Positions 1 to 59,637 of a stretch of DNA of 64,000 nt are shown piece by piece (position 1 is the first letter of the stretch; each line of letters opens with the position of its first letter). Position numbers and translations under genes: made by a program. This DNA is from an uncultured Hormoscilla sp. Its GTDB lineage: Bacteria > Cyanobacteriota > Cyanobacteriia > Cyanobacteriales > Desertifilaceae. The DNA lies in NCBI GenBank assembly GCA_963921275.4, contig OZ001293.3, forward strand, positions 2,208,001 to 2,272,000, given 5' to 3'. Under the pieces are notes generated by a model, which had not been told where the DNA came from, made no database searches, and saw only the letters and a list, made by a program, of their open reading frames with translations.

Positions 1-436
1 GACAAGTTAGATGTTAAGCGCAAGCCACGGGGGGAGGGATGGCCCAAGAAGCGAATGCCCGGGGTAATTCCTGGGATAACATCTACAGTAATGTAGATGA
101 TGCTGGGTAGCCAGCGCTGACGTGGGTCGGTGATACTAGGAAGCTGCTGGAATGAGTAATCCTAAAAAGCCACGGAACTAATCCGAAACGCAAGTGGAGG
201 ATAAGGTATGGATAACTGGTAAAACTGACTTGAAAATGGTGATACTAACGGTTATCAGAACAACCACTCGCTAAACCAGGAAAGGGAAGAAAAGACAGGC
301 GGCAAGGGCTAACGGAAGTAATTCCTATTAAGTCTACCTATGAAAAGGACCTAGTACCCAGTAGCCGGATGCGGTGAAAATCGCAAGTCCGGTTCCTCAA
401 GGGAGGGTCGGGAAGCGATTCCCGGCTCGACCCCAT
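1..436 (+). mobile_element. ORF-less group II intron (type B, copy 1; 5' part lies before the window)
   Basis: Near-identical to 2276-2711. Domain V AGCCGGATGCGGTGAAAATCGCAAGTCCGGTT, domain VI hairpin and 3' end ...CTCGACCCCAT. Confidence 0.9.
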
Positions 437-1445
437 CCACCTCTGACAGCCAATTCAACAAATCTGACTGATTGGTAATCTCAAAAATCCTATCTGTTAA
501 CTCTTCTAAATCCGACAGGGACAAACTTGCAATTTTGCTGTTGATTTCCGCTGTCATTTCACCAAATTTATTTTTGAGCAGGCGCATTGCTAAAGCGCTT
601 GCTTCAGCAATGCGTCCTCGTTCAATCCCTTGTTTAATCCCTTGTTCAATCCCTTGTTCAATCCCTTGTTCAATCCCTCGTTCAATCCCTCGTTTAAGTC
701 CTTGTTCCCAGGCTTCTTCACTGGCATATTTCATCCGTCCTATCTCATCTTGCAAATAAATCGAGCGACGAATTACTTCATCTGCTTCCTCCGGTTCCAT
801 ATTGGCTAGTTTGGCTATCTTTAAGGCTTTTTCGATTTCGGCAATCTCTCCCAATGTCGGCGGGATTTCCTCTAACTCATTTGCCAGCTTAATGAAGTAA
901 ATCCATTTCTCTGCTAAGGTCGTCAAGTCTTTCAACTCTTTTTTGAATCTGGGCAATTCCACAAAAAATAGCTGTAGTTCTCGCTGGGGATATTCATAAT
1001 TTCCCTGGGCTTCTTTGAACACAAAATGATGAATCACTTGCGGGTTTTGGTGGAAGAGAACAAAGTTGGTTATTGTTACCGCAATTACTGGCGATATCTT
1101 CAGGTAATCTTCTCCTGATTCCAACTGGTTGGCATAGGACTTACAGAGATTATAAGCCACCCGCTTATCGAATGCCGCTACCCGTGCTAATTGCATTTCG
1201 ATCAGGACGATTTCCCCATTCTGTAGTACCGCCCTCACATCCAAGTAACTGTCCTTTAATGTTTCTACATGACCTTGGTTGTAAGGATTGACAATGGTTA
1301 AGGTAGAAATGACCTTTTCGCCATTATAGATGATGGCATTCAGAAAACTAATCAAAATATCTTCACTTCGGTCCGAGCCAAAAATTTTTTTGAAGGCATA
1401 ATCGATTGTGGGACTGATAAATATTTGCTTGGCCATAACAAACAT
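351..1445 (-). CDS. Rpn-family PD-(D/E)XK nuclease/putative transposase with GIEQ repeats and DUF4351-like C-terminus; natural 3' end interrupted by the antisense intron at 436
   Basis: Motifs PTIDYAFKKIFG, LDVRA...IEMQ, FFVELPRFKK, EKWIYFIK. The last ~28 residues (DGVEPGIAS...) are read from the reverse complement of intron domains V-VI. Confidence 0.85.
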   Translation of the reverse strand: MFVMAKQIFISPTIDYAFKKIFGSDRSEDILISFLNAIIYNGEKVISTLTIVNPYNQGHVETLKDSYLDVRAVLQNGEIVLIEMQLARVAAFDKRVAYNLCKSYANQLESGEDYLKISPVIAVTITNFVLFHQNPQVIHHFVFKEAQGNYEYPQRELQLFFVELPRFKKELKDLTTLAEKWIYFIKLANELEEIPPTLGEIAEIEKALKIAKLANMEPEEADEVIRRSIYLQDEIGRMKYASEEAWEQGLKRGIERGIEQGIEQGIEQGIKQGIERGRIAEASALAMRLLKNKFGEMTAEINSKIASLSLSDLEELTDRIFEITNQSDLLNWLSEVDGVEPGIASRPSLEEPDLRFSPHPATGY

Positions 1446-1569
1446 CTCCTTCTTTTCTAAGTTCACAATTACCTGGGTACGTTCTGGGAGCCCATGGCTG
1501 AGACTACCAGTCGCAGTAGCATAAGACTGCCATGAGAATTATTATATCACGTCAGTCAGGGTTTGTGGT

Positions 1570-1840: not shown

Positions 1841-2711
1841 GTGCGATTCGTTCTAGCCTAACGTGGTCAAACACGGAACGCTAGCCCGGTTTCATTAGCC
1901 GGGAACTCTGACCGCATGGGGGTTAAATTCCCCTCCCCCCAGGTACGGGGGTGACACCGGTCCTCGGTGCTACGAAGCGACATCATCGTGGTGCTAAGCG
2001 AGGACTCAAATGTAGGATAACTGGCAGCCTAAGCCGGTGACGCCGCTAGGAAAGATATCCAAGGTTAGAGCAGGCAAACATGTGTGCAAGCCTCGTTATA
2101 AGGAACCAGCGAAATAAGGCTATATGCGCTGGCCTAAAAAGGAAATGGTAGCTAGTATTAGTTTTAGACTCTGGCTAATATAGTACTCAAATAGCTCCCG
2201 GGGTATAGTGTGGACCTAAAGGTATCGCGAAATGTTGTTAGGGAACGAAGTAACCTCTCGTGTGCTGTCCATCAGGACAAGTTAGATGTTAAGCGCAAGC
2301 CACGGGGGGAGGGATGGCCCAAGAAGCGAATGCCCGGGGTAATTCCTGGGATAACATCTACAGTAATGTAGATGATGCTGGGTAGCCAGCGCTGACGTGG
2401 GTCGGTGATACTAGGAAGCTGCTGGAATGAGTAATCCTAAAAAGCCACGGAACTAATCCGAAACGCAAGTGGAGGATAAGGTATGGATAACTGGTAAAAC
2501 TGACTTGAAAATGGTGATACTAACGGTTATCAGAACAACCACTCGCTAAACCAGGAAAGGGAAGAAAAGACAGGCGGCAAGGGCTAACGGAAGTAATTTC
2601 TATTAAGTCTACCTATGAAAAGGGCCTAGTACCCAGTAGCCGGATGCGGTGAAAATCGCAAGTCCGGTTCCTCAAGGGAGGGTCGGGAAGCGATTCCCGG
2701 CTCGACCCCAT
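1841..2711 (+). mobile_element. ORF-less group IIB intron (type B, copy 2, complete, 871 bp)
   Basis: Starts GTGCG, ends ACCCCAT; domains V/VI at ~2637-2711. Loop AGACTC (2166-2171) is complementary to the 5' exon end GAGTCT. No RT ORF. Confidence 0.92.
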
Positions 2712-2994
2712 CCACCTCTGACAGCCAATTCAACAAATCTGACTGATTGGTAATCTCAAAAATTCTATCTGTTAACTCTTCTAAATCCGACAGTGACAAA
2801 CTTGCAATTTTGCTGTTGATTTCCGCTGTCATTTCACCAAATTTATTTTTGAGCAGGCGCATTGCTAAAGCGCTTGCTTCAGCAATGCGTCCTCGTTCAA
2901 TCCCTTGTTCAATCCCTTGTTCAATCCCTCGTTTAAGTCCTTGTTCCCAGGCTTCTTCACTGGCATATTTCATCCGTCCTATCTCATCTTGCAA
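2712..2994 (-). pseudogene. Duplicated 3' end of the Rpn gene (C-terminal domain only)
   Basis: Near-identical to 437-755 but with three fewer 12-bp GIEQ repeats. Confidence 0.85.
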
Positions 2995-25898: not shown

Positions 25899-27586
25899 CG
25901 ACTATCTCCTTCACAATGCTTTTTCCAGAGAACGCTTGGTTCTCTAGGAGAGCGAGTCGGAATCTAGTTATCGCTCTTATCCGACTCGTCCTAACCCTGG
26001 AAGATGCTTGAGTTAGGACTTCCTAACCTAACTCGATCTTACACATACTCCGCCTTGATGGTAATCGACGGGCTGTTGTCGAACACCTTGATGAAACTGA
26101 TGTTGATGTCCATGTTGTAATACCAGGCGTTGCTGCCAGAATTATTGAGAGCATCGGCCCGTTCATTGGGATAGCCATTGACTATCGGTTGCAACTGTTG
26201 CCCCCTGATGCTAACGCTCTTCAACGGACCATTGCTTCCCTTATGTTCCCCCGGATCGTGCAATACTGCCACGAAGAAATGCTTCTCGAAGGGCGGCGTA
26301 TATCCGTCGTAGATGCGCTCCACTTTAATTTCCCGCGTCTTTTCGCTAGTGTAGCTGTGGGTAATCTTGGTCTCGCGATATTCGTCCTTGGCGTTGGGAT
26401 CGTCCACCTCTGCTTGTGGGGCAGAAGAACGGCTCACCCCATCGTCCAAATACATGTGGTATTCCCCTTCCTTCCCTGGATAAATATTCAGGGTAATGGG
26501 ATTGGGCTTACCTTCCGCATTCAATTGTCCCACATATTGTTTCAGTTCGATGATCGGAATGATTGCCCCTGCCCGGACGTGGATCGGAACAATAAAGTGA
26601 ATGTGATCGCCATTGGTATTGATGTTGGCATCAAAATCCCGTATCGTTGTGCCCCCTTCTACCGCAGCACCAAGAGGCATAACGTTGTCCACAAAGCAAT
26701 ACCAGTTGCTACCTTTGGGCACATAGACATCCCGCCGGCCATTGTTGTTGTCTTCAGATTGAGGGTGCAACACTGGAGCAATAAGCAGATCCTTGCGAAC
26801 GAAGAACTCGTTGTTCAGGAATTGGTCTTTATCATTGTAGAGGGATTCATCTTGGGGATCGTTGAGGAACAAGGAGCGGCAGATGGGCATCCCATTCAGG
26901 GTGTTCTCAAACAATGCGTCATAGAACAACTGCATCAGCCGGTAACGCAATTGAATGTAATGCCGGCAAATCGGCAACACCATCTCATACAAGTCTCGGG
27001 GTTCTGGGATATTGCCGCCGATATGTTCGTAAAACCAATCTACATACTGGAATGGTTCTTGGAACTCATTGCGCCCTTTGCGGACGTAGTGGTTGCGGAA
27101 CCAGGGTAAGAAAGCACCAGCCGCAGTCCAGCGGATCAGCAGTTCTGGACTTGCCCACTTGCCCCGATCGATTTCCCCCTCTTCAAAGCCGCCGATATCT
27201 TGCCCCGTGATTGCCAAGGCATGCATCCCTAGAGACAGGACTTGGGAGATATTCATCTGGAGGAAATCCCAGTCAGAAGAGTTATCCCCCGTCCACAAGC
27301 CAGCATATCGGTGAGAACCAACATAACTGCCCCGTCCGATGATAAAGTTGCGTTTGTTCTCCCGTCCGGGCAGTTTATTGAGTCCTTCGTAGGTGGCTTT
27401 GTGAAGATTGTAGGAGTACAAGTTCCAGACTTTGAGGGCTGGCTTCAACTCCAGTTCTCCTTGGAAATCGCTGCTCACATAGAGCTTGAAGGGGAAGCCC
27501 TTCATATCTCCACGGGAGTCGCGGATCGCCGGGGTGGTCATGTCCTGCCAGACAAATTCTAGCCCCTGCTCAAACAGGTATGTATA

Positions 27587-28598
27587 ACCTAAGTTGCGAC
27601 CTATTAAAAAAAATATGAATTACCCACTTAGACTTTACAGATATTTGGGATATTTCGTAGCTTTTGATACAAAATTATATTTTTTTTGTGCTAGACGGCG
27701 GGTTGGCTGTTTATAGGTTATAATGTACTAAAATAATAGTTAATTGCTGGGGGATGTAGATGATGGAAGATATGATTACAACAATTTTTGTTCTTTGTGA
27801 CGAGCTACTAAAAGCGTTAAATATAAAAGAAGATCCACAAGTAAAAATGAACAATGCCGAAGTGATGACAGTCGGATTAGTTGCTGCATATTTTTTCGGA
27901 GGACACCACGATCGCTCTTGTCAATTTATGGTCCAACACAAGTATATAAAAAATCTGTTAAGTAAAAGTAGGTTCAATCGTCGATTACACAATATTGACG
28001 AACCAATTTGGATGTTTTTCTTCCAAGTTATAGCTCAAACATTTAAAGAGCTCAATCCGGGTCAAGAATATATTCTTGATAGTTTCCCGGTGCCAGTATG
28101 TGATAATATTAGGATTGATAGATGCCAAATTTATAACAAGAAAGAATATCGAGGGTATATTGCCAGTAAAAAACGTTATTTTTATGGATTAAGAGTTCAT
28201 ATGTTGGTAAACAAAAATGTAAAGCCAATAGAATTTTATCTAGATCCTGGTAGTTATAATGATGTTAAAGTTTTACAATCTTTTGGCTTTGACTTACCAT
28301 CAAATTCAATAGTTTATGGAGATAAAGCTTATAATGATTATCAATTAGAGGATTTACTAAAAGAGTCGTCAAGTATAATGTTAAAACCTTTGCGAAAAAA
28401 GAACTCAAAAAGAAAAGAATCTTCTTGTTTTGAATATATACAAAAAGTAACAATAAAACAAGTTGAAACCTGTTTTATTTGAATCACAAATTTGTTTCCC
28501 AAGTCAATTCATGCTGTTACATCTAAGGGATTAGAGTTGAAAATAATTCTCTTTATCATAGCTTTTTGTATCCAATTTTTATAGGTCGCAACTTGAGT
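27587..28598 (+). mobile_element. IS982-family insertion sequence, 1012 bp
   Basis: TIRs ACCTAAGTTGCGACCTAT / ATAGGTCGCAACTTGAGT; 8-bp TSD TATGTATA at 27579-27586 and 28599-28606; AT-rich. Confidence 0.92.
27760..28584 (+). pseudogene. IS982 DDE transposase with premature TGA at 28480-28482
   Basis: LDSFPVPVC, YFYGLRVH, YGDKAY. The frame continues ITNLFPKSIHAVT to TAG at 28582-28584. Confidence 0.85.
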
Positions 28599-30140
28599 TA
28601 TGTATATTGCTTGCCCCACCATTCACGGACTTCTGGCCGGGCTAGATCGGCGTAATGCCCCGGAGTTCCCAGTTGGTTCCCGGCGGCATCTTCTCCATAG
28701 TAAACTTCGCCAATGTAAGGTTCGCCACTATTGAAACCTTCAACCCAGCCATTATTGGGACAGAATTCATGACCGCTACCGTAGATTTGGTAGTATTTGC
28801 TCTCGGGATTGTCCGCATCGTAACGCTTGTCGATCACAAAGTAGTCTTTTTCTAGTCCCTCCTTGTAGGTTGGGTAGTAACCTGGGTTGTCCTCATCTTG
28901 TTTGCTGATCACCGGGGTGATGTTGGTGCTGCACTTGACACCTTGCGATCGCAACCAACCGAACATTTCCTTTGGGCTGTCGAAGGTTTTCTCGTAGGGG
29001 CTGTTCTTATTGTAGATGTAATCCGGCTTGATGGTGAAAGTCCGGTAGTTATCTTGGATATCGACGTCCACCGCGAGGCCATCAAGGGGAATGTCATAAC
29101 TCCGGTATTTTTCTACAATCCACTTGAGGTCAGCCGCACATTCGTACCCATAGCAACCTTGGTGACATCCTAGGGCGTAACGCGGTTTCAACTCGGCGCG
29201 GCCAACAATGGCGGTAAAGCTATCCAAGATGTTCTTCGGGTCTTCTCCCAAGAACACATAGTAGTCAAGATCCCCAAAGCGGGTGCCGAACATATAGCGA
29301 CTGGAGTTGCTATAGCCGATATCGATGAAGACTTGAGAGGGGTTGTCCAGGAGAACCGCATTGACGTTTTTGCTACCGGGAATGCCATTGAACTCGTAAA
29401 AGAACGGCTCCGAGTGGTAAAGAGGCTCCCGGTTATCTAACGGTCCGCGATCGTAGACCTGTCGATAGCGCATATTATCGAAGTTGAAATAATTTAACTG
29501 GTCGCTATTTTTTTGGAGTTTTGTTCCCCCTTGTTCCCCAAACCCGATATATTTGCCGTTGGCTGGTTTCTTGACCGCTTGGATGACGGCATAATCCTCT
29601 TTGCCATGCGGGGTATAGTAAATTGCCGTGTCTGCGGTTTGCCAGACGGTAATTTTTGCATATTCCGCATTGGATGGGGAGTTGTTGAATACTTTGATTC
29701 CGAAGGGAGCCAAGGTGACAACCACTTGCATCACGATGGAGTTAAATTCCGACTTCGTTGTCAAGACGATCTGGCCGTTGCCTTCTTGGCAATCTAGATC
29801 GAAGATATATTGTTGCCTGATTTCCTCGTCCGCCTCATCGAAGTCGCAGTGTTCCAGCAAGTGCGTGAAACTGCTGTATTCCGCCTCCGTTGACTTGGTT
29901 GGGTTAAAGCGCACCCGTAATGTATCGTTCTGAAGCACCTCTATCAACATCAGGCAATCGCTGCCATCGACCTTCTTAAATTTAAGGCTCAAAGTCTTTT
30001 GCTCTTTATTGAAGGAATGACCGACAGATGACCCCAGTTTGTCCCATTCTTGGTAGCGGCCAAAATATTCCTCGACCTTGAGAAATTTGTAAACGCGATG
30101 ACTTGGAAAAATTTCGTTGGACATTACTTGACTCTTCTCC

Positions 30141-30860
30141 TTAGTTAGAATTTTTTTTTGGGTGATATTCGATCGCCATCCATATGCAATCCGTCTCTGC
30201 ATAATACTGATGCCACGGATAGGTATATTGCTGGTTTTCGTGAACCTGACAAAATGGCACGATCTGGGTGTATCCCTCAGTCATCAAGAGGTCTTCATAG
30301 AGACTCTCAAAACTTTTCACCTTGAACTTCTGCATCCGTCCCTGTCCAAAGACTTGGGTGTGAATCTCCAGAAAGTCATGTTGGTTATGGATTGCACAAT
30401 CGGTACGGGAAGGGGCATACCAGAGGTTCACTTTGACACAGAACTTTTCTTGGTGACTGGGCGCACTTGATTGCCTGGCCATAAAATACGGATCCACTTC
30501 TATGATTCCCGCCTCGTCTTGGGGAGACTTCCATAGCGGGATGTCTGTGGGAAAGTTCGTGTCTGGGAAGTTACCCAATAGATCCCACCCTGGCTCAAAG
30601 ACAATCTTGCCGATATTGTTGGTCTCTACCACTGAGAGCAAAAGTAAGGACTTTGCTTTTTCGATGGTAGTATCTTTGAGTATAGTCGATGAAAAAGCCG
30701 GAATTATGCTGACGTTTGCTTCCTTCAGGTAAGCATCAGTTTCTTCGGGGTTGACTGCGATTGTACGGTTCTGAATGGGATAGTTTTCCACATTTTCAAC
30801 GCATTTCGCGTCTATGTACGCACCGGAAAAGTTAATGACTTTGACTTGGTTAGTTGTCAT
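30141..30860 (-). CDS. Cupin-type protein resembling the cupin region of aldos-2-ulose dehydratase
   Basis: NLWYAP..TDCAIHNQHDFLEIHTQ and YPWHQY His/Glu metal motifs; ends 16 nt before the glucan-lyase-like start. Confidence 0.6.
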   Translation of the reverse strand: MTTNQVKVINFSGAYIDAKCVENVENYPIQNRTIAVNPEETDAYLKEANVSIIPAFSSTILKDTTIEKAKSLLLLSVVETNNIGKIVFEPGWDLLGNFPDTNFPTDIPLWKSPQDEAGIIEVDPYFMARQSSAPSHQEKFCVKVNLWYAPSRTDCAIHNQHDFLEIHTQVFGQGRMQKFKVKSFESLYEDLLMTEGYTQIVPFCQVHENQQYTYPWHQYYAETDCIWMAIEYHPKKNSN

Positions 30861-31224: not shown

Positions 31225-32093
31225 ATGGGGTCGAGCCGGGAATCGCTTCCCGACCCTCCCTTGAGGAACCGGACTTGCGATTTTCACCGCATCCGGCTAC
31301 TGGGTACTAGGCCCTTTTCATAGGTAGACTTAATAGGAATTACTTCCGTTAGCCCTTGCCGCCTGTCTTTTCTTCCCTTTCCTGGTTTAGCGAGTGGTTG
31401 TTCTGATAACCGTTAGTATCACCATTTTCAAGTCAGTTTTACCAGTTATCCATACCTTATCCTCCACTTGCGTTTCGGATTAGTTCCGTGGCTTTTTAGG
31501 ATTACTCATTCCAGCAGCTTCCTAGTATCACCGACCCACGTCAGCGCTGGCTACCCAGCATCATCTACATTACTGTAGATGTTATCCCAGGAATTACCCC
31601 GGGCATTCGCTTCTTGGGCCATCCCTCCCCCCGTGGCTTGCGCTTAACATCTAACTTGTCCTGATGGACAGCACACGAGAGGTTACTTCGTTCCCTAACA
31701 ACATTTCGCGATACCTTTAGGTCCACACTATACCCCGGGAGCTATTTGAGTACTATATTAGCCAGAGTCTAAAACTAATACTAGCTACCATTTCCTTTTT
31801 AGGCCAGCGCATATAGCCTTATTTCGCTGGTTCCTTATAACGAGGCTTGCACATGTTTGCCTGCTCTAACCTTGGATATCTTTCCTAGCGGCGTCACCGG
31901 CTTAGGCTGCCAGTTATCCTACATTTGAGTCCTCGCTTAGCACCACGATGATGTCGCTTCGTAGCACCGAGGACCGGTGTCACCCCCGTACCTGGGGGGA
32001 GGGGAATTTAACCCCCATGCGGTCAGAGTTCCCGGCTAATGAAACCGGGCTAGCGTTCCGTGTTTGACCACGTTAGGCTAGAACGAATCGCAC
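31225..32093 (-). mobile_element. ORF-less group IIB intron (type B, copy 3, 869 bp)
   Basis: Reverse complement of 1841-2711. 5' exon ends GAGTGT; 3' exon begins CCA. Confidence 0.92.
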
Positions 32094-32247: not shown

Positions 32248-32320
32248 GTCGGGGTCGAGCTGGGAATCGCTTCCCAACCGGACCTTTCGGAACCATGGGT
32301 GCGACTTTCACCGCACCAGG
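32248..32320 (-). mobile_element. Isolated domain V-VI remnant of a related group II intron
   Basis: Reverse strand reads TGCGGTGAAAGTCGCA...GGTTCCGAAAGG...GGGAAGCGATTCCCAGCTCGACCCCGAC. Confidence 0.75.
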
Positions 32321-32879
32321 TCACTCAATTGACTTTGAAACACAAAGTCCCACAGAACTTGCTCTCACATTATTTGCTTGCGGCTTCCTCACACAGTCAG
32401 ATTACGAGATACTGGTAAAAGCAATTGCAATCTCAGACCGCGTGATAGAACAACAGGAGAAAGTAGCAGTTGCACAAAATTTTGCTGACCAAGCTTTTGA
32501 GGTGGTGCAGCGTCTTGTTCGCTTCCATTCCCAAGTATAGTAAGTTGGTCCCACGACACTGGGGAAGACCCAGATAAGGTTCTATCCTCTCGGGCCGCGC
32601 CACCAGGCAGCCCCCTATGCTAAATTAACACTAAGCCATGTTCATGTCGGACCGGGTCCGAAACGATAACTATGTCTCTGGGAAATTTGCGCGACCTCTA
32701 TCAACAAGTTATTCTAGAACATTACAAGAAGCCTCGGCATCGGGGTAAAACAGAACCGGTGCATCGGTCCCAGCGGGGACATAACCCCAGTTGCGGGGAT
32801 ACCATCGAGCTGACTCTGCAACTGAATGATGCACGCGATCGCATCTGTGATGTAAAATTCTCTGGGGAAGGCTGCGCGA
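32321..32879 (+). repeat. Near-exact 559-bp direct duplication of 33766-34324 (3' end of hypothetical gene, intergenic region, 5' part of sufU-like gene)
   Basis: Constant 1445-bp offset; accounts for ORFs 32295-32540 and 32672-32920. Confidence 0.95.
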
Positions 32880-33383: not shown

Positions 33384-33985
33384 CTACAGCATTATCAAAA
33401 TTGTCAGATCCTATGAGCGACGAAATTGCCGATCGCTATAGACAGCAAGGTTATCGAGTTTTAGTGAAGCCGCGCGTGGCTCCCTTGACTGAATTTATTT
33501 CCAGAGCGGATCTAGATTACATTATCCACGCGGAAAAATCAGCGGTGATTGTAGCCTTAAAACCTTCTGATATCCGGCCTGTAGTTAAAGATGAATCTGA
33601 TAGCGAGCAAATACCAACATTGTATGATTATCCGGTGAGAGATTTGACAGATATTTCCATATATCAGTCGAGAGCAGGGTATCTAATAGCAAAAGGAGAT
33701 TTTGATGCAGCTGTTTGTGGTGCTGTGTTTATAGCTAAAGTAGTGATGCGGATGATAGCAGAACATCACTCAATTGACTTTGAAACGCAAAGTCCCACAG
33801 AACTTGCTCTCACATTATTTGCTTGCGGCTTCCTCACACAGTCAGATTACGAGATACTGGTAAAAGCAATTGCAATCTCAGACCGCGTGATAGAACAACA
33901 GGAGAAAGTAGCAGTTGCACAAAATTTTGCTGACCAAGCTTTTGAGGTGGTGCAGCGTCTTGTTCGCTTCCATTCCCAAGTATAG
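33380..33985 (+). CDS. Hypothetical protein (restriction-endonuclease-like N-terminus, helical C-terminus), start overlapping the RusA-like stop
   Basis: IADRYRQQGYRVLVKP...D motif; ATGA overlap at 33380-33383. Confidence 0.55.
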   Translation: MTTALSKLSDPMSDEIADRYRQQGYRVLVKPRVAPLTEFISRADLDYIIHAEKSAVIVALKPSDIRPVVKDESDSEQIPTLYDYPVRDLTDISIYQSRAGYLIAKGDFDAAVCGAVFIAKVVMRMIAEHHSIDFETQSPTELALTLFACGFLTQSDYEILVKAIAISDRVIEQQEKVAVAQNFADQAFEVVQRLVRFHSQV

Positions 33986-34116
33986 TAAGTTGGTCCCACG
34001 ACACTGGGGAAGACCCAGATAAGGTTCTATCCTCTCGGGCCGCGCCACCAGGCAGCCCCCTATGCTAAATTAACACTAAGCCATGTTCATGTCGGACCGG
34101 GTCCGAAACGATAACT

Positions 34117-34596
34117 ATGTCTCTGGGAAATTTGCGCGACCTCTATCAACAAGTTATTCTAGAACATTACAAGAAGCCTCGGCATCGGGGTAAAACAGAA
34201 CCGGTGCATCGGTCCCAGCGGGGACATAACCCCAGTTGCGGGGATACCATCGAGCTGACTCTGCAACTGAATGATGCACGCGATCGCATCTGTGATGTAA
34301 AATTCTCTGGGGAAGGGTGCGCGATCGCGATGGCGTCGGCGGACTTGATGGCGGAGGCCTGCATCGGCAAAACAGTTGGAGAAGCTCTGGAAATGGTAGA
34401 AAGGTTCCAAGGGATGATGAAAGGAGAGGTAGAGTTTCCCAAAGAACTGCGGAAGTTGAACGTCATGCAAGGCGTTTCCCAGTTCCCAGTCAGAATCAAA
34501 TGTGCTAATCTGACTTGGCATACCCTGAAAGCGGCCCTGAAAAATCCCTTAGGCAGTCAGCCAGAAGCAGGGTTTGTCAGCAACGAACAGGATTAA
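34117..34596 (+). CDS. sufU: SUF-system NifU/SufU-family Fe-S assembly protein
   Basis: LYQQVILEHYKKP, NPSCGD, GEGCAI, FPVRIKCA. Confidence 0.9.
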   Translation: MSLGNLRDLYQQVILEHYKKPRHRGKTEPVHRSQRGHNPSCGDTIELTLQLNDARDRICDVKFSGEGCAIAMASADLMAEACIGKTVGEALEMVERFQGMMKGEVEFPKELRKLNVMQGVSQFPVRIKCANLTWHTLKAALKNPLGSQPEAGFVSNEQD

Positions 34597-42726: not shown

Positions 42727-42919
42727 GGCTATACTCCGCGCGGTAATCGCACAAAAGACACAGCTCGAACCCGTTCCAGGCGGGAGCCTCTTAACGAGGG
42801 ATCCGGCTACGAGAACCGCCTGCTTCGATGTCTCCGGAGAGCGCTAGTCGCACTACTCCGGAGACATCGAGGGCTATATTACATGTCCGCAGAAGCTCAG
42901 ATGGCCTATGGGGGCATAT

Positions 42920-45900
42920 TGATCCCCCCCAGCAGGAGTATCAGGCCTTAAGGGCTCTCTATCAAAGCACCAATGGGGCTTCTTGGACGAACAATACAGG
43001 CTGGCGGGACTGGAATTTCAACAGCCAAACTCCCCCCGAAGCTTCTGTTGTTAATGGTTGGTTTGGGGTGACGGTAGATAGCGACAGGGTGACTGAGCTC
43101 CAGCTGAACGTCAACTTCCTGACTGGCAGCATCCCGACGGAGTTAGGGAATCTTTCCAATTTGGAGGATCTCTGGCTGGACTTCAACCAACTGACTGGCA
43201 GCATCCCGACGGAGTTAGGGAATCTTTCCAATTTGGAGGATCTCTGGCTGTTCTCCAACCAACTGACTGGCAGCATCCCGACGGAGTTAGGGAATCTTTC
43301 CAATTTGGAGGATCTCTGGCTGTTCTCCAACCAACTGACTGGCAGCATCCCGACGGAGTTAGGGAATCTTTCCAATTTGGAGGATCTCTGGCTGTTCTCC
43401 AACCAACTGACTGGCAGCATCCCGACGGAGTTAGGGAATCTTTCCAATTTGGCATCTCTCTACCTGGACTCCAACCAACTGACTGGCAGCATCCCCCAAG
43501 AGGTTCTAGATTTGAGTGCCTTCAAGCGGTTGGAAAACCCCCCTTATGTTTTAACCGAGATTTCCGACGTCCAACTCTTGCTAAGTAATAACCTCAACAT
43601 AGACATTAGCGCAAATTTCGGCGACATCAATAACAACATCGACAATTACACAGCTACCGGTTTACCAGGGGGCGTAACGATCAACAGTCGGGGAGTTATC
43701 AGCGGTACTCCTACTACCGCAGACATCTTTACCGTAACGGTAACTGCCACCGACGCTGCTGGGAACAGTTACTCAGAAGCCTTTACTATTAGCGTCAATG
43801 AGATCCTCCAGCAGGAGTATCAGGCTTTAAGGGCTCTCTATCAAAGCACTAATGGGGCTTTTTGGAGGAACAATACAGGCTGGCGGGACTGGAATTTCAA
43901 CAGCCAAACTCCCCCCAAAGCTTCTATTCTTAATGGTTGGTATGGAGTGACGGTAGTTAACAAGAGGGTGACGGAACTCTGGCTGCACTCCAACTTCCTG
44001 ATTCGCAGCATCCCGACGGAGTTAGGGAATCTTTCCAATTTGGAGGAACTCCGGCTGTCCAACAACTTCCTGACTGGCAGCATCCCGACGGAGTTAGGGA
44101 ATCTTTCCAATTTGGAGGATCTCTGGCTGGAGGAAAACCAACTGACTGGCAGCATCCCGACGGAGTTAGGGAATCTTTCCAATTTGGAGTCGCTCCGGCT
44201 GGACGACAACTTCCTGACTGGCAGCATCCCGACGGAGTTAGGGAATCTTTCCAATTTGGAGGATCTCTGGCTGAACTCCAACGAACTGACTGGCAGCATC
44301 CCGACGGAGTTAGGGAATCTTTCCAATTTGGAGTCGCTCCGGCTGGACGACAACTTCCTGACTGGCAGCATCCCGACGGAGTTAGGGAATCTTTCCAATT
44401 TGGAGTCGCTCCGGCTGTACTCCAACCAACTGACTGGCAGCATCCCGACGGAGTTAGGGAATCTTTCCAATTTGGCATCTCTCTACCTAAACTCCAACCA
44501 ACTGACTGGCAGCATCCCGACGGAGTTAGGGAATCTTTCCAATTTGGAGTTTCTCAATCTGAAATACAACCAACTGACTGGCAGCATCCCGACGGAGTTA
44601 GGGAATCTTTCCAATTTGGAGTTTCTCTGGCTGCGCTCCAACCAACTGACTGGCAGCATCCCGACGGAGTTAGGGAATCTTTCCAATTTGGCATCTCTCT
44701 GGCTGACCTCCAACCAACTGACTGGCAGCATCCCGACGGAGTTAGGGAATCTTTCCAATTTGGCATCTCTCGTGCTGACCTCCAACCAACTGACTGGCAG
44801 CATTCCGACGGAGTTAGGGAATCTTTCCAATTTGAGTCGTCTCCGGCTGAACAACAACCAACTGACTGGCAGCATCCCGACGGAGTTAGTCTTTCCCATT
44901 TGTGGACGTTCTACCTGAACAACAACCAACTGACTGGCAGCATCCCGACGGAGTTAGGGAATCTTTCCAATTTGGAGTTTCTCAATCTGAAATACAACCA
45001 ACTGACTGGCAGCATCCCGACGGAGTTAGGGAATCTTTCCAATTTGGAGTTTCTCTGGCTGCGCTCCAACGAACTGACTGGCAGCATCCCGACGGAGTTA
45101 GGGAATCTTTCCAATTTGGAGTTTCTCTGGCTGGAGGAAAACCAACTGACTGGCAGCATCCCGACGGAGGGAATCTTTCCAATTTGATTTGGCTCTGGCT
45201 GGAAGAGAACCAACTGACTGGCAGCATCCCGACGGAGTTAGGGAATCTTTCCCATTTGTCGCAGCTCTACCTGAACAACAACCTCCTGACTGGCACCATC
45301 CCCCAAGGGGTCTTAGATTTGTGGGCTGAAAAGCGGTTGGAAAACCCCCCTTATGTTTTAACCGAGATTCCCGACGTCGAACTCTTGCTAGGTAATAACC
45401 TCGACATAGACATTAGCGACAACTTCGGCGACATCAATAACAACATCAACAATTACACAGCTACCGGTTTACCAGGGGGCGTAACCACCAACAGTCAGGG
45501 AGTTATCAGCGGTACTCCTACTACCGCAGACACCTTTACCGTGACGGTAACCGCCATGGACGCAGTGAGCAATCAAGGGACAGATATCTTTGACATTGTT
45601 ATAGAGAACTCCCCTCCTACCGAGCGTAGCGAGCAACTCTACGAAAACGGGGGGAACGACTATCTCATCGGCAGATATGAAAACGACAGTCTCATCGGCG
45701 GATATGGAAAGGATACCCTCATCGGCGGATATGAAAACGATACTATCTACGGAGGAGGTGGGAACGACTCTCTCATCGGCGGACGTGGAAAAGATACCAT
45801 CTACGGAGAAGATGGGAACGACTCTCTCATCGGCGGACGTGGAAAAGATTACCTCTACGGAGGAGATGGGAACGACTCTCTCATCGGCGGACGTGGAAAA

Positions 45901-46203
45901 GATTACCTCTACGGAGGTGATGAGAACGACACCCTCATCGGTGGACGTGGAGACGATACCCTCGAAGGAGGGGAGGACGCCGATATTTTTGTTCTGAAGC
46001 AGGGCCATGGCCGGGATACCATTATAGACTTTGAAGATGGCACGGACTTGATTGGGCTAGCAGGAAGTTTGAGTTTCGAAGATTTGGCGATCGTCAGGAT
46101 AGGCCGAAATACCTCAATTAACTTTGAAGGGGAAACCCTTGCCACTTTGCAGGGGATTGATTCAACCCTGATTACTAGCGATGATTTCACTGTGGTTACT
46201 TGA
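42920..46203 (+). pseudogene. Secreted LRR protein (plant-type 24-aa LRRs, two Ig-like He_PIG domains, C-terminal RTX Ca-binding repeats) with two 4-bp deletions (~44889, ~45169)
   Basis: 72-bp repeats encoding LTGSIPTELGNLSNL; ATGLPGGVTINS.GVISGTP; GG.G.D.L.G nonamers and D.I.DF..G.D.I. Confidence 0.88.
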
Positions 46204-46311: not shown

Positions 46312-46425
46312 AACCAGTTAGATATTAAGCGTAAGCCGTTAAGGGAGGGATGTCCTAAGAAGCCGAATGCCTGGGGTAATGCCCGGGATGTGTACCAGTT
46401 ATTGTTCTGGTGCCCGCTGACGTAG
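46312..46425 (+). mobile_element. Internal fragment of a related group II intron
   Basis: AGTTAGAT.TTAAGCG.AAGCC...GGGAGGGATG...AAGAAGC.GAATGCC.GGGGTAAT...GCTGACGT resembles 2278-2400. Confidence 0.7.
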
Positions 46426-46453
46426 ATAATCCATATTTGTTAAAATTTTTTAA

Positions 46454-46471
46454 ATAGGTCGCAACTTGAGT
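46454..46471 (+). mobile_element. Solo IS982 terminal inverted repeat
   Basis: ATAGGTCGCAACTTGAGT is identical to 28581-28598. Confidence 0.75.
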
Positions 46472-46579
46472 TATGATAGATAACGGTGCGACTCGTTCCG
46501 GCGTAAGTCGAAAATATGACGATAGTTCGGGCTGGGGGTGCATTGATGATACATGTATATAGCCGGCGCAGGACACGCT

Positions 46580-47623
46580 GCCGCTGCCGCTGCCAGCTTT
46601 TTCCTTCCAAGTCTCGGGATAGTCAATATTCAAACCATAACGATCGTTTTCATAGGTGAAATATTTGGGTCCGCGAGTTAGGATGTAATAGGCGACGATC
46701 GCACTCAATCCCACTGCTAGAACTATCCCCGCGATGATAACTTTTTTCCAAGATGAAGGGGGTGGCGGGGGCGGCGGGGGCGGGGATAGGGCCTGCAAGA
46801 CTTCAGCAGCCGACTGGTAGCGATCGCCTTGGTGGTGGCGCACCATTTTATCGATAATATCCGCCAGGCGATCGCTCACATGGGGTGCCCGATCGCGCCA
46901 GACTACTTCATTATTAGTATCTTTTCGCAGGTTAGTAGGGAGTAACCCAGTGAGGGCCTGGATAGCAATCATCCCCACAGCATAGATATCACTACAGAAG
47001 CTAGGACGACCGTGGGATTGTTCGGTCGGCATGTAACCGGGAGTACCAATCAATATGGTACTAGGCGCCTGTCCTTGAGGGTTAAGTATTTGGTTGCCAA
47101 TTTCTTTAACCGCCCCAAAATCAATGGACAATCTTGCCATCCTGTCGGCGCATGATATTGGCCGGTTTCAGGTCGCGGTGAATGGCATTGTGTTTCTGGA
47201 CCCATACTAACACTTCCAGGATCTCCCGCAATAGGGCGATCGTCTCTGCTTCACGCCACTGCTTACCCGGAGTAATTTCGTGAGAGAGTTCCTTTCCCTC
47301 AATATATTCTTGTACCAAATAGAATTGCTGATTTTCCTCAAAATGAGCCAGCGATGTCTCCCCTTTTGTGCGAGTAGCGCTCCCGGGAGACATCGAAAGT
47401 CGCGGGATCTCGTCGTGACTTCCTAACTTTTCCAGCACTGCTGCTTCTCTGTCGAATGCCTTCGACAGTTTCTGCAAGAGAGACGGAGGGAAACTGGATA
47501 GCTTGAGTTGCTTGACAACGCAGTGGGGATGACCTGGACGTTGCCATCGGATGCCAGAAAAGTTATCCCGAAAGTTCCCTCTCCCAATTCCCTAAAGATC
47601 TCATATCGCCCGCCGATAGTCAT
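46580..47623 (-). pseudogene. Hanks-type Ser/Thr protein kinase (two frameshifts, 45-nt palindromic insertion, truncated extracellular part)
   Basis: LGEGTFGITF, HRDLKPANI, DFG, GTPGYMP.EQ, SDIYAVG, poly-Pro and TM segment. Confidence 0.85.
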
Positions 47624-49597: not shown

Positions 49598-50531
49598 TCA
49601 CAATTGGACAAACTCAAGCTTACCAGTATCAGCATCCAGGTGAACGGGGACACCTACAGGCAAAGCAGCATTAGGGCCATTGTGGCCAAAAGGGAGGTCA
49701 GAGACGATCGGCAGGTTGAGATTACTGAGGCGATCGCGCAGGACTTCATCAACAGTAAAACTAGGAATCCCCAGAGGGGACTGACATTGACTAAAACGGC
49801 CCAAAGCAAGGCCGCGAACTTGATGTATCGCCCCAGTCATGCGCCATTGAGTCAGACATCTGTCAAGGCGGTAAGGAACCTCAAAAACATCCTCAAAAGC
49901 CAAAATCACACCCTCTAGTTGAGGCTGCGCGGGCGTTCCCAAAAGATGAGTCGCCACAGTTAGATTTCCGGGCAACAGCATACCACTAACCCCTAACCGT
50001 CCCCCCAACCGCGACCAAACAGAGGTAACAAAGGGCGTCCCTCCACCCAGCCAAATAAGCGATCGCGAGACCACTGTGGTTCGGCGGCCAGGGTCGTTAG
50101 TACCGGACCGTGAACGCCAGAAATACCAGCGGAGTATTGACTCCAGAGTAAAGCAGTAATATCAGAAAAGCCAATCAACCATTTAGGATAGCTCTCCCGA
50201 AGAGATTCCCCCTGTCCGGGCCAAGTCCAATCTTCCAAAAGTCTGGTGCTACCGTAACACCGTAACCCCCTCTGGCGCAGAGAATAGCGCGACATTCTCT
50301 ATCCTTGAAGGCATCCAGTAACTGCTGACGGCGGTGGGCGTCCGTACCTGCCAAATAGCCCCATTCTCGAGCAAATTCGGTGCCCAACTCTACCCGATAG
50401 CCGCGTTTTTTCCAAATCTCCACACCCTGAAAGAAAGCCATCATATCTCTCAAAGCACCACTAGGAACAATTACCCGCAGTAGATCCCCGGGTTGTAACC
50501 ATTTAGGAGTTAGCACTTTAGCATTAGTCAT
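49598..50531 (-). pseudogene. LD-carboxypeptidase (S66), two frameshifts
   Basis: ARGGYG, IGFSDITAL, HGP, GNL, EDV.E.PYR.DR and PFGH are spread over three ORFs. Confidence 0.85.
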
Positions 50532-55964: not shown

Positions 55965-57003
55965 TATTTTATACTCCTGATGATGTATATTATTACTTGG
56001 GTAGTATAGGATATTCTTGATAAATTGTAAAGTTTTGTGATGTGAGCTGACAACATCTACAGCTGGCTGCGGTTCGCCCGTGGTTATACGGCCGTCAGCT
56101 TAAATCACCAATTAATATCATGTCGGGTTGAATGCACCTGATTAAGCGGCCTTGATTTTTGGCCACCAATGATATAAGGTCAACCCCTCAATTAACTCTT
56201 GCTGTTGGAGTAATTGGCGACATCGCTCAACCGGTGTCTTCCACCTCATCAATGCTATTAAACGCTTTGTTGGCTAAAGGTTCATCGATTAATGGCCATA
56301 ACCGCTCAGCTGGTTGCAACTCTGGTGAATAGGGGGGCAGGGGGAACAGGTGAATCCCTTCAGGCACCTGGAGCTTTTCCGTCATATGCTAGCTAGCCTG
56401 GTGGAGAGGGAGAATTACCCGTTTATCTTTGCCAACTTGGAAATGATAGGCAAAGTCTTCGAGCACCGCAGCGAATAGCTGGCTATTCACCTCGGGAAGA
56501 AGCCACCAGTATCTCCTGTTTGGGGTTGGACAAAACCGTACAACCACAACCATTCCCGTTTCCAGTTGACCTTGGCAATCGGCACTGAGAGTGCTTCTAC
56601 CCAGACAGGGCGAGTCACTGGCTGCAATCCGATGGGATGTTCATCTTCTGCCCAAATCTCGACGGTAGCTTCGGAATTGACTGTTGAATCCGTTCCACCT
56701 CTACGAGCAGTTTTTTTTGCCATTCAGACTGAACTTCCTCTACCGCCTCAATATGCTCAGGACGCGGCACTCTTAAACGAAACCCCATCGGCTTAAGATC
56801 TACCCACCCTTGTTGCCAGCTAATACAGATACCAAAGGCATCCCTCAAGTAGTCACAGACAGAGGCGCCCATTCCAAAGACCTCCATCGGGGGCGAGCCC
56901 ACAGCAATTGGGCCTGTTGTATATCATCGAGTTTCGAGTGCGATTCGTTCTAGCCTAACGTGGTCAAACACGGAACGCTGGTCTAGGAAACTAGAAACTC
57001 TGG

Positions 57004-57872
57004 ATGGGGTCGAGCCGGGAATCGCTTCCCGACCCTCCCTTGAGGAACCGGACTTGCGATTTTCACCGCATCCGGCTACTGGGTACTAGGCCCTTTTCAT
57101 AGGTAGACTTAATAGGAATTACTTCCGTTAGCCCTTGCCGCCTATCTTTTCTTCCCTTTCCTGGTTTAGCGAGTGGTTGTTCTGATAACCGTTAGTATCA
57201 CCATTTTCAAGTCAGTTTTACCAGTTATCCATACCTTATCCTCCACTTGCGTTTCGGATTAGTTCCGTGGCTTTTTAGGATTACTCATTCCAGCAGCTTC
57301 CTAGTATCACCGACCCACGTCAGCGCTGGCTACCCAGCATCATCTACATTACTGTAGATGTTATCCCAGGAATTACCCCGGGCATTCGCTTCTTGGGCCA
57401 TCCCTCCCCCCGTGGCTTGCGCTTAACATCTAACTTGTCCTGATGGACAGCACACGAGAGGTTACTTCGTTCCCTAACAACATTTCGCGATACCTTTAGG
57501 TCCACACTATACCCCGGGAGCTATTTGAGTACTATATTAGCCAGAGTCTAAAACTAATACTAGCTACCATTTCCTTTTTAGGCCAGCGCATATAGCCTTA
57601 TTTCGCTGGTTCCTTATAACGAGGCTTGCACATGTTTGCCTGCTCTAACCTTGGATATCTTTCCTAGCGGCGTCACCGGCTTAGGCTGCCAGTTATCCTA
57701 CATTTGAGTCCTCGCTTAGCACCACGATGATGTCGCTTCGTAGCACCGAGGACCGGTGTCACCCCCGTACCTGGGGGGAGGGGAATTTAACCCCCATGCG
57801 GTCAGAGTTCCCGGCTAATGAAACCGGGCTAGCGTTCCGTGTTTGACCACGTTAGGCTAGAACGAATCGCAC
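57004..57872 (-). mobile_element. ORF-less group IIB intron (type B, copy 4, 869 bp), inserted antisense into intron A
   Basis: Near-identical to 31225-32093; 3' exon again begins CCA. Confidence 0.92.
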
Positions 57873-57896
57873 AGTACTCATGAGGGTTAGATTCCC

Positions 57897-58653
57897 GTGC
57901 GATGAGTTCCAGCCTAACGTAGTCATATACGGAACGCTGGCCTAGGAAACTAGGAACTCTGGTAATCATGGGGGTTTAATTCCCCCTCCCCAGGTACAGG
58001 GGTAACACCGGTTGGAGGCGCTGCGAAATAACATCGTCGTGGTGCTAAGCGAGGACTCAAATGTAGGATAGCTGGCAGCCCAAGCCAGTGAGGACGCTAG
58101 GAAAGATGTCCATGGCTAGAACAAGCGAACCTATGTAAACCTCGTTAAACCCAACCAGCGAAATAAGGCTTAATGCGCTGGAACAAAAGTTAATGCAGTT
58201 AGTGTTAATTAGGGAATTGGCTAACATTGTACCCAAATAACTGCCGGGGAAAAGTAGGGGCCTAAAGGCATCGTGAAATGATACCAGGGAACGAAGTAAC
58301 CCTTCGTGTGCTGTCCTAAAGGACCAGTCAGATGTGAAGCGCAAGCCGCGAGTGGGAAAGATGGCCTAAGAAGCAAATGCCCGGAGTAATGCCTGGGATA
58401 TGCAGACGTAGGTCGGTGATAGTTGGAAGTCTTGGGTAAAAGTAGCCCTAAATATGCCTACAGCTCGGGGGAAACCTGTCAGAGATGGATAAGCTCAAGG
58501 GGCCAAATCTCATGAGACGAGGGACAACGGGAGTAATCCCGAAGTTACCTACCAGTGACAAGGACCAACTACCCAGTAGCCGTGTGCGGTGAAAGTCGCA
58601 TGCACGGTTCCGAACGGGAGGGTTGTCCCGCGAGGGACAGCTCGACCCCTAAT
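57897..58653 (+). mobile_element. ORF-less group IIB intron (type C, 757 bp), inserted in sense into intron A
   Basis: GTGCG start; domain V AGCCGTGTGCGGTGAAAGTCGCATGCACGGTT; end CTCGACCCCTAAT. Loop GGGAAT (58212-58217) is complementary to the 5' exon ATTCCC. Confidence 0.9.
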
Positions 58654-59637
58654 TCTCCCCAGGCACGGGGGTAACACCGGTTGGAGGTGCTGCGGAGTAA
58701 CATCGCCGTGGTGCTAAGCGAGAACTTAAATGTAGGATAGCTGATAGCCTAAATCGGCGACGCCGCGCTTGTTAGATGTCCAAGGTCAGAATAAGCGAAT
58801 TCATGAAATGATACTAGGGAACGAAGTAACCTCTCATGAGCTGTCCTCATTTGGACAAGTTAGATGTAAAACGGAAGCCATGAGGGGAGAGATGGCCCAA
58901 GAAGCAAAAGCCTGGGGTAATTCCTATGGATACGCTGACGTGGGTCGGTGATAGATAGAGTCTTTGGGTGAAAGTAACCTTAATGTTTTAGATCAGGAGA
59001 AATCCTAGATAATGAATGTTGGACTAAAGACCTGACCGGGTAAAACTTGGAGAACCTAGTAAATTAGGTAAATGTTAGTAAAGAGCGGTTAAAATGGGTT
59101 GGTACTGTTATCCCCCGCGAACCTTCCGGAGTTAGGCATATATGTAGTCTGAGACTAACCATAAGGGGTGAAATTGCATGAAGAAAGGGACAAAGGGAGT
59201 AATTCTGAGTAATTATACTTAGGACAAAGGCTATCTACCCAGTAGCCGTGTGCGGTGAAAGTCGCTCTTCAGGTTCCGAAAGGGAGGGTTGGGAGGTGAC
59301 TCCTAGCTCGACCCCAACTCTGCTTTCCCCAGCATTGTGACGCCGTAAATCTCCCAACGCAGCTACAAGAAATGCGGTTGTAACTACGAACCAGCTCGTA
59401 AATCCAATCCCGACTGTAGCCCGTCACCGCTGCTACTTCCTCTCGGGGTCGGCCTTGGGCTAATAACCAGATGATTTGATAATGTGAGCGCTCAATCGGA
59501 TGAGAAGTCTGACGGTAGCGTTGTTCCAATTCCTCAACTGTGAGATGGGAGAAAATACTGATGCGTTTGGGCATTACCAGTGTACCAGGAGGGGACTATT
59601 CTATATTAGGTGCATTCAACCCGACATGATATAACAA

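Follow-up and report, generated by a model that had tools for sequence, protein, structure and literature searches.

Anatomy of the nested element

The DNA considered here is a stretch of 64,000 nt from contig OZ001293.3 of an uncultured Hormoscilla sp., a cyanobacterium; this whole stretch is called the window. At positions 56118-59629 it contains an insertion sequence (IS) of the IS630 family which is filled with group II introns. The IS holds intron A, and A in turn holds intron B on the opposite strand and intron C on the same strand, 24 nt apart. The transposase of the element is encoded on the minus strand. A and C, on the plus strand, are antisense to it; B, on the minus strand, runs in the sense of the transposase. 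An earlier sequence-only reading had proposed exactly this nesting, with inner introns of opposite orientation separated by 24 nt. It is borne out by matches to domains V and VI, by the rebuilding of A and by transposase homology, and all junctions resolve to the base where that reading had placed them.

The IS630 element comprises 1131 nt of its own sequence plus the 2381-nt intron nest. Its assignment is based on the ends, the flanks and the matches of the transposase to family profiles. An inverted-repeat search identified two perfect 22-nt terminal inverted repeats, the left one at 56118-56139 (plus) and the right one at 59608-59629 (minus), confirming the claim that the ends of the IS are intact. 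With up to 3 mismatches allowed, the window has 2 matches to the repeat, which are these two ends (100 shuffles predict 0), i.e., no further copy of the 22-nt ends exists in the 64 kb. Directly outside, a TA is read at 56116-56117 and again at 59630-59631, which we take to be the target duplication of the IS630 family. Inverted repeats and duplicated TA together are those of an IS630 member. On one side the element is bordered by the 3' end of an FAD-oxidoreductase gene, on the other by the start of a gene for a carotene-hydroxylase-like desaturase. In a plasmid collection no match was found for the whole nest (near mode) or for B (distant mode), and the left IS arm (distant mode) weakly matched a single entry, a Stanieria plasmid, with 65% identity across 52% of the arm.

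The transposase gene is a remnant in two parts, both delineated by tblastn and three-frame translation. The N-terminal part, corresponding to about aa 1-85 of a 354-aa homolog, is located at 59319-59574 (minus) and has one frameshift; the rest, at 56145-56937 (minus), has five further frameshifts and one in-frame stop. Four open reading frame (ORF) fragments match the NCBIfam profile of IS630 transposases, NF033545, at profile positions 3-37, 82-138, 140-196 and 241-289, each of them, being a fragment, below the cut-off of 100 bits. Pfam matches of the fragments are HTH_23/HTH_29, HTH_33 and DDE_3. Among 35 candidates, two proteins (P0001 and P0002) are longer relatives of the 95-aa transposase fragment. 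Both have 354 aa, and NCBIfam identifies them as IS630 family transposases with 214 and 226 bits. Over the tblastn segments they are 53-70% identical to the remnant, and the homology extends over all 354 aa only when the frame is switched in the order 2>3>1>2>1>3>1, i.e., through six frameshifts, in addition to the in-frame stop. The gene is evidently of the IS630-type DDE class, though a pseudogene.

When intron A (56938-59318) is taken out, a single frame runs unbroken over the junction 59319|56937. Full-length IS630 transposases match on both sides of it, and the rejoined sequence has one residue more than its relatives. The assertion that removal of A rejoins the transposase frame consequently holds across the junction, yet needs the amendment that the transposase itself has decayed by six frameshifts and a stop. 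As to a cognate transposase at hand, which might move the IS in trans, relatives of 53-70% identity and the lack of second IS ends in the window count weakly against it.

Three related introns without a reverse transcriptase

Intron A was rebuilt by script from 56938-57003, 57873-57896 and 58654-59318, i.e., 66 + 24 + 665 = 755 nt. The rebuilt sequence is collinear with B (869 nt) and C (757 nt). The alignment is gapless at the C junction; directly at the B junction the rows of B and C show a gap of 2-3 columns. The remaining differences are a deletion of 140 nt and the unequal length of domain IV. Global identities amount to 70.7% for A and C (435/615), 67.2% for A and B (484/720) and 75.6% for B and C (568/751), and BLAST comparisons of the intron copies with one another give E-values from 1e-15 down to 0. 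The relations between these introns far exceed chance. Further, a 5-bp hairpin of domain I (57882-57886 with 57894-57896 + 58654-58655) closes only once C is removed, and it has an A-U pair in A where B and C carry G-C. Collinearity and the hairpin closed across the C junction both agree with the proposal that excision of B (57004-57872) and C (57897-58653) restores A.

By consensus, group II introns begin with GUGYG and end with AY, and their domain VI has a bulged A 7-9 nt before the 3' end. All three introns start with GTGCGA, and the 5' end of A and of B is GTGCGATTC. B ends with ...CCCCAT, C with ...CCCCTAAT, and both comply with the consensus at their two ends and in the bulged A. In domain VI of both introns an unpaired G-A is located just 5' of the final CCC(C), within a helix supported by covariation. 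RF00029, the Rfam model of group II intron domains V-VI, has a gathering score of 40; at this threshold it is the sole Rfam family matched in the whole window. Two of its five matches are in the nest, one in B (57004-57080, minus, 44.4 bits) and one in C (58575-58653, plus, 43.9 bits), so that both possess the domain V/VI of a ribozyme.

Intron A is different. Its nt 1-66 are at 56938-57003 (plus), and of these nt 1-42 agree at every position with nt 1-42 of B. Direct reading and alignment assign nt 67-90 to the 24-nt island between B and C (57873-57896, plus), which carries the intron-binding sites (IBS) discussed below. Nt 91-755 at 58654-59318 (plus) include, by alignment, the 140-nt deletion and domains IV to VI, of which IV is long and V damaged. 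The deletion corresponds to nt 235-374 of C, with its breakpoint at 58800/58801, a stretch which in B and C carries both exon-binding sites (EBS). Domains V-VI of A (59241-59318, plus) reach 21.7 bits with RF00029 (E 0.4), below the gathering score and seen in a search at E<=1. Counting pairs, 3/13 of domain V are broken, all in the lower stem, and domain VI is retained through compensatory changes. These counts refer to an alignment of four sequences, A, B, C and a fragment at 32248-32335, in which the helices of domains V-VI are 92.3% paired with compensatory changes at 7/26 pairs. Only 1/500 shuffles reached these values, and slid controls were 35-56% paired. The loss of the EBS region and the damage to domain V, both noted in the sequence-only reading, are thus real. 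Possessing neither an intact domain V nor EBS, A is by its sequence a catalytically dead relic of the family.

The fragment used in that alignment deserves a separate description. At 32248-32320 (minus) lies the 3' end of a 5'-truncated group II intron, with part of domain V and domain VI. With 77-81% identity to A, B and C it represents a sequence type of its own, the fourth here. Rfam misses it at E<=1, it is positioned 154 nt upstream of a B copy at 32093, and though no part of the nest it is useful for domain V/VI covariation.

Intron C (57897-58653, plus, 757 nt) is ORF-less, apparently intact and on the same strand as A. Its EBS1, GGGAAT (nt 316; 58212-58217), is unique in C, is exposed in a hairpin loop and pairs at 6/6 positions with the IBS1 ATTCCC (57891-57896) immediately ahead of the intron. 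EBS2, AACCC (nt 252; 58148-58152), is unpaired in the consensus fold and pairs 5/5 with the IBS2 GGGTT (57884-57888). By these pairings the site of C in A looks like a proper homing site. The target, GGGTT, 2 nt and ATTCCC followed by T, recurs nearly unchanged in B and in C, there with a C instead of the T. It is possible, though in our view doubtful, that C-type introns are specialised introns of introns with the conserved domain I hairpin of sibling ribozymes as their home site. If this were true, and taken together with the very active ORF-less B family, introns without proteins would compete for one trans-acting reverse transcriptase (RT) and would disable each other by insertion and by long antisense hairpins. 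A second copy of either the C type or the A type does not exist in the 64-kb window.

Intron B (57004-57872, minus, 869 nt) is likewise ORF-less and apparently intact; its strand is opposite to that of A and the same as that of the transposase. Its EBS1, AGACTC (nt 324), and EBS2, TAAGG (nt 257), occupy the same alignment positions as those of C. Unlike A and C it has company. Three copies, at 31225-32093 (minus), at 1841-2711 (plus) and at 1-436 (plus, incomplete at the window edge), share 99.5-99.9% identity with the one in the nest. The four copies within 64 kb are 99.5-100% identical, each with an RF00029 match of 44.4 bits. Nest B differs from the 31225 copy at 1/869 positions and from the 1841 copy in 4 columns (of 869-871) including a 2-nt indel. 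This near-identity to three copies in the window indicates that B is recent and belongs to an active family, which, to judge from its sequences, needs an RT in trans.

The 5' flanks of B are informative. The copy at 1841 is preceded by GAGTCT, which gives 6/6 IBS1 pairs, and that at 32093 by GAGTGT with 5/6. In the nest the flank is an IBS1-like GAGTACT (57873-57879, on the other strand of the island), which forms 6 pairs with one bulged A. EBS2 of B pairs at 4/5 positions only, with G-U counted. At all three sites (1841, 32093 and nest) CCA follows at +1 to +3. From these flanks the site of B in A looks ectopic, a second-best choice on the other strand.

The two copies near the left edge of the window are associated with genes. 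At 351-1466 (minus) and 2626-2994 (minus) there are paralogous genes for PD-(D/E)XK 'transposases' (PDDEXK_2) with DUF4351, the second one truncated. Each carries an antisense B-type intron at the same spot, about 3 codons past DUF4351. Downstream of B the two paralogs agree without a difference for at least 40 nt, and over about 300 nt their identity is 94.6%; the partial copy at 1-436 shares the downstream flank of the 1841 copy. The PDDEXK_2/DUF4351 site with its perfect IBS1 may be the preferred home site of B.

Reverse splicing guided by EBS-IBS pairing is an established rule for group II introns. In B and C the EBS loops are at homologous positions, each pairing with its own flank. The co-variation of loop and flank is, as a sequence pattern, the signature of such guided reverse splicing.

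None of the three introns encodes an RT, as had been stated earlier. The longest stop-to-stop frame in 56938-59318 has 102 aa, and 0/37 frames scanned in the span of A (of 53 with at least 30 aa) match an RT or maturase family in Pfam at E<=1. Two weak and unrelated Pfam matches (E 0.13 and 0.055) occur among these 37 frames. Elsewhere in the window no RT was detected among 54 ORFs scanned, which represent 50/83 of those with at least 100 aa (33 overlapping longer ones were omitted) plus 4 short IS fragments. The introns of the nest lack an ORF for an intron-encoded protein (IEP) in domain IV, the hallmark of a mobile group II retroelement. An exact look-up in a sequence collection retrieved 3/9 ORFs, each as a singleton cluster; the spurious intron ORFs are absent from it.

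Probable order of events and alternative explanations

Most probably by far, in our view, the locus is a fossil stack of selfish elements without any function for the cell, to which first the IS630 element, then A, and then B and C contributed. Judging from its anatomy, the IS630 element entered a TA between two host genes. Next, the group II intron A, probably of type IIB, evidently inserted on the strand antisense to the transposase. Because of this orientation A would never have been spliceable from the transposase mRNA, and the insertion must have been a knockout; the transposase, once killed, would have gathered its six frameshifts and the stop. A in turn lost 140 nt with EBS1 and EBS2 and three pairs of domain V, an event which probably comes third in the order, and with this loss A would no longer be a ribozyme. 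Finally, B and C entered domain I of A, presumably by reverse splicing into DNA followed by reverse transcription. EBS-IBS pairing would have guided both, and the RT would have come from elsewhere in the genome. C would have used the sense strand at the site which matches EBS1 6/6 and EBS2 5/5, and B, by ectopic retrotransposition, a degenerate version of its favoured motif GAGT-CT|CCA on the opposite strand.

Not everything fits this history smoothly. The pairing of B with IBS1 at the nest site is only 3/6 unless the bulge is allowed. The trans-acting RT is assumed; there is no RT gene in the nest frames or window ORFs scanned. For a six-domain IIB architecture the analysis covered Rfam models and RNAalifold. 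Of the Rfam models for domains I-IV a single one gives a match, which is sub-threshold (B 22 bits against a cut-off of 36; C none). RNAalifold with B and C predicts a multi-domain fold, with EBS2 unpaired and EBS1 in a hairpin loop. Lastly, A and B agree completely in their first 42 nt, while over the rest of A the identity is 67%. Past nt 42, A sharply turns C-like, with 22/24 positions matching C. Simple independent decay would not predict such a pattern; the B-like start of A calls for another origin, be it gene conversion by B, descent from a mosaic ancestor or an artefact of over-polishing.

As a consequence of their identical 5' ends, A and B form a perfect 42-nt inverted repeat, 56938-56979 and 57831-57872, with arms 851 nt apart. 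Recombination between these arms could flip the segment between them, and the complete identity of the arms hints at an exchange. The orientation of B would then be secondary, with B or the segment 56980-57830 having been inverted. We regard this as very unlikely. The present flanks of B, GAGTACT on the 5' side and CCA on the 3' side, fit the motif at the other B sites, and A is collinear in the present orientation once B is removed. A flipped B would have as its 5' flank the IS sequence ending in TTTCGA, which does not match the EBS1 of B, and the flipped state would invert the first 66 nt of A relative to its remainder, an arrangement impossible by any single insertion. Only the present state gives both the usual flanks of B and a collinear A, and inversion was rejected as the origin of its orientation.

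The same repeats raise the question whether the assembly can be trusted. B is a repeat of 869 nt with at least 4 copies in 64 kb at 99.5-100% identity. Misjoined copies might have created the nest, and the 42-nt identity between A and B could reflect over-polishing by reads from the abundant B copies. That the nest as such is an assembly artefact is nevertheless highly improbable. Every junction is positioned exactly at an intron end with a matching EBS/IBS pair or target motif, the outer pieces rejoin as a collinear intron and an in-frame transposase, as a chimeric join would not, and the length of the contig, 6,879,066 nt, suggests that repeats of the size of B were resolved.

Stepwise insertion of selfish elements remains by far the preferred account, and it also bears upon what the locus can express. 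Only C in A has the geometry of a twintron, C being inserted in domain I of A in the same orientation, like the inner intron of a Trichodesmium twintron (PMC4649490). One might then propose a working twintron with serial splicing which conditionally restores A, the transposase or the IS; we consider this extremely improbable. A runs against the transposase, and B in turn runs against A. A is without EBS1 and EBS2 and has a broken domain V, and the transposase has six frameshifts and a stop. A plus-strand promoter-like site was not found, the sites numbering 4 against 4.2 in shuffles. By its sequence the locus is not a functional twintron, since C lies in sense but in a dead A, and B lies antisense. 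Serial splicing is not to be expected. B, being antisense in A, would not be spliceable from the transcript of A, and with A dead in addition, the sequential splicing suggested as a check in the sequence-only reading would be no meaningful test at this locus. B could still be transcribed, as read-through from the transposase or from the gene upstream would run in its sense. A scan for promoters and terminators gave sites not above shuffles and is uninformative on transcription.

Transcripts spanning both inner introns should have another peculiarity. The 5' halves of B and C form a head-to-head quasi-palindrome at 57362-58400, with the 24-nt island in its middle and 79% identity over 513 nt. 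Folding yields a single long hairpin with a predicted energy of -707.5 kcal/mol (-254.8 for the whole of C and -303.1 kcal/mol for the whole of B). According to these folding energies, an imperfect B-C hairpin of about 500 bp should compete with either ribozyme fold in transcripts of either strand.

The locus reveals no new mechanism and no host function. Its value is that of a record, resolved to the base, of selfish elements piling up in safe havens, in which the relative order of events can be read: the IS, then A, then B and C. The four copies of B suggest that ORF-less introns are still moving in this cyanobacterium, which would imply a promiscuous RT elsewhere in the genome, as experiments have demonstrated for Thermosynechococcus. 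Further, the two natural target sites, one perfect and one degenerate on the opposite strand, could serve to calibrate the target rules of the family.

The wider window and known systems

The window shows other signs of rearrangement. Two direct repeats of 559 nt (32321-32879 and 33766-34324), which share 99.6% identity at a distance of 1445 nt, each contain the 3' portion of an AHJR-like ORF together with about 70 codons from the beginning of a NifU-like gene. The left copy begins exactly at the end of the truncated intron fragment (32320), and the two events may conceivably be linked, for instance through a template switch of an RT. A glycosyl hydrolase family 31 gene at 26039-30202 is present as two ORFs (28598-30202 and 26039-27541, minus), split by an inserted DDE_Tnp_1-type transposase gene (27760-28482, plus). 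A protein kinase (46355-47477, minus) and an LD-carboxypeptidase (49598-50531, minus) each appear as two adjacent ORFs; these split genes are probably pseudogenes, or else assembly frameshifts. At 42828-46203 (plus) long repeat arrays with a 72-nt period and 84-95% identity occur in leucine-rich-repeat/He_PIG/RTX-repeat proteins.

How exceptional is the nest? The sequence-only reading had considered the triple nest unusual. This was overstated, as the literature already describes introns borne by IS elements, as many as five introns nested in one another, and the mobilisation of ORF-less introns in trans. A close parallel is found in Thermosynechococcus elongatus. According to work on this cyanobacterium (Mohr, Ghanem & Lambowitz 2010, PMC2882425), ORF-less introns are mobilised by the IEPs of other introns, introns target IS elements as well as other introns, several bacterial twintrons are known, and bacterial ORF-less introns are rare and reside in genomes with related IEPs. 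In both cases near-identical ORF-less introns have spread in a cyanobacterium, by IEPs acting in trans in T. elongatus, and in the T. elongatus nests the inner copies are identical and the outer ones diverged, which we count as a likeness. There, however, the inner introns are described as having the orientation of the outer ones and as lying in domain IV, flanked by two start codons of the outer ORF. The outer introns of T. elongatus are functional and encode an RT, whereas here the outer A is dead and has none.

Nests of up to five introns, including ORF-less ones and without coding exons around them, are reported for Methanosarcina acetivorans (PMC4424553, PMC2882425). Like the present nest they were built by repeated homing into related introns. 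M. acetivorans is an archaeon, and the homing there is described as directed at related intron ORFs, here it is into domain I. The passages on M. acetivorans mention no IS host and no antisense member (PMC4424553, PMC2882425).

With respect to position, the twintron Tery_4732 of the cyanobacterium Trichodesmium erythraeum is similar. Its inner intron is likewise inserted in domain I of a IIB2 host (Pfreundt & Hess 2015, PMC4649490), and the 5' consensus of that host, GUGCGAUUC, which was used for the IIB2 assignment, is the exact start of A and B. Unlike the ORF-less nest in a dead IS, Tery_4732 is described as residing in a protein-coding gene, as transcribed and sequentially spliced, and both of its members have IEP ORFs (PMC4649490).

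RmInt1 of Sinorhizobium meliloti resembles the present case in its host, as its natural target, ISRm2011-2, is assigned to the IS630-Tc1/IS3 superfamily (PMC4615759). RmInt1 encodes its own IEP and is reported to home efficiently into many IS copies (PMC4615759); here we see one IS copy in the window with a decayed, ORF-less relic. Finally, the 'zombie' twintrons of plant mitochondria and a self-invading intron similarly present fossil inner introns and a family entering its own relatives (Zumkeller, Gerke & Knoop 2020, PMC7049729). These are organellar, their outer introns still splice, and they have no transposon host (PMC7049729).

An antisense intron within an intron inside a cyanobacterial IS630 element was not found in the literature searched, a weak negative because subscription journals were mostly uncovered. 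What is particular about the Hormoscilla locus, compared with all these systems, is that a dead IS630 element combines three introns, all ORF-less, with one in antisense orientation and the two inner ones both in domain I.

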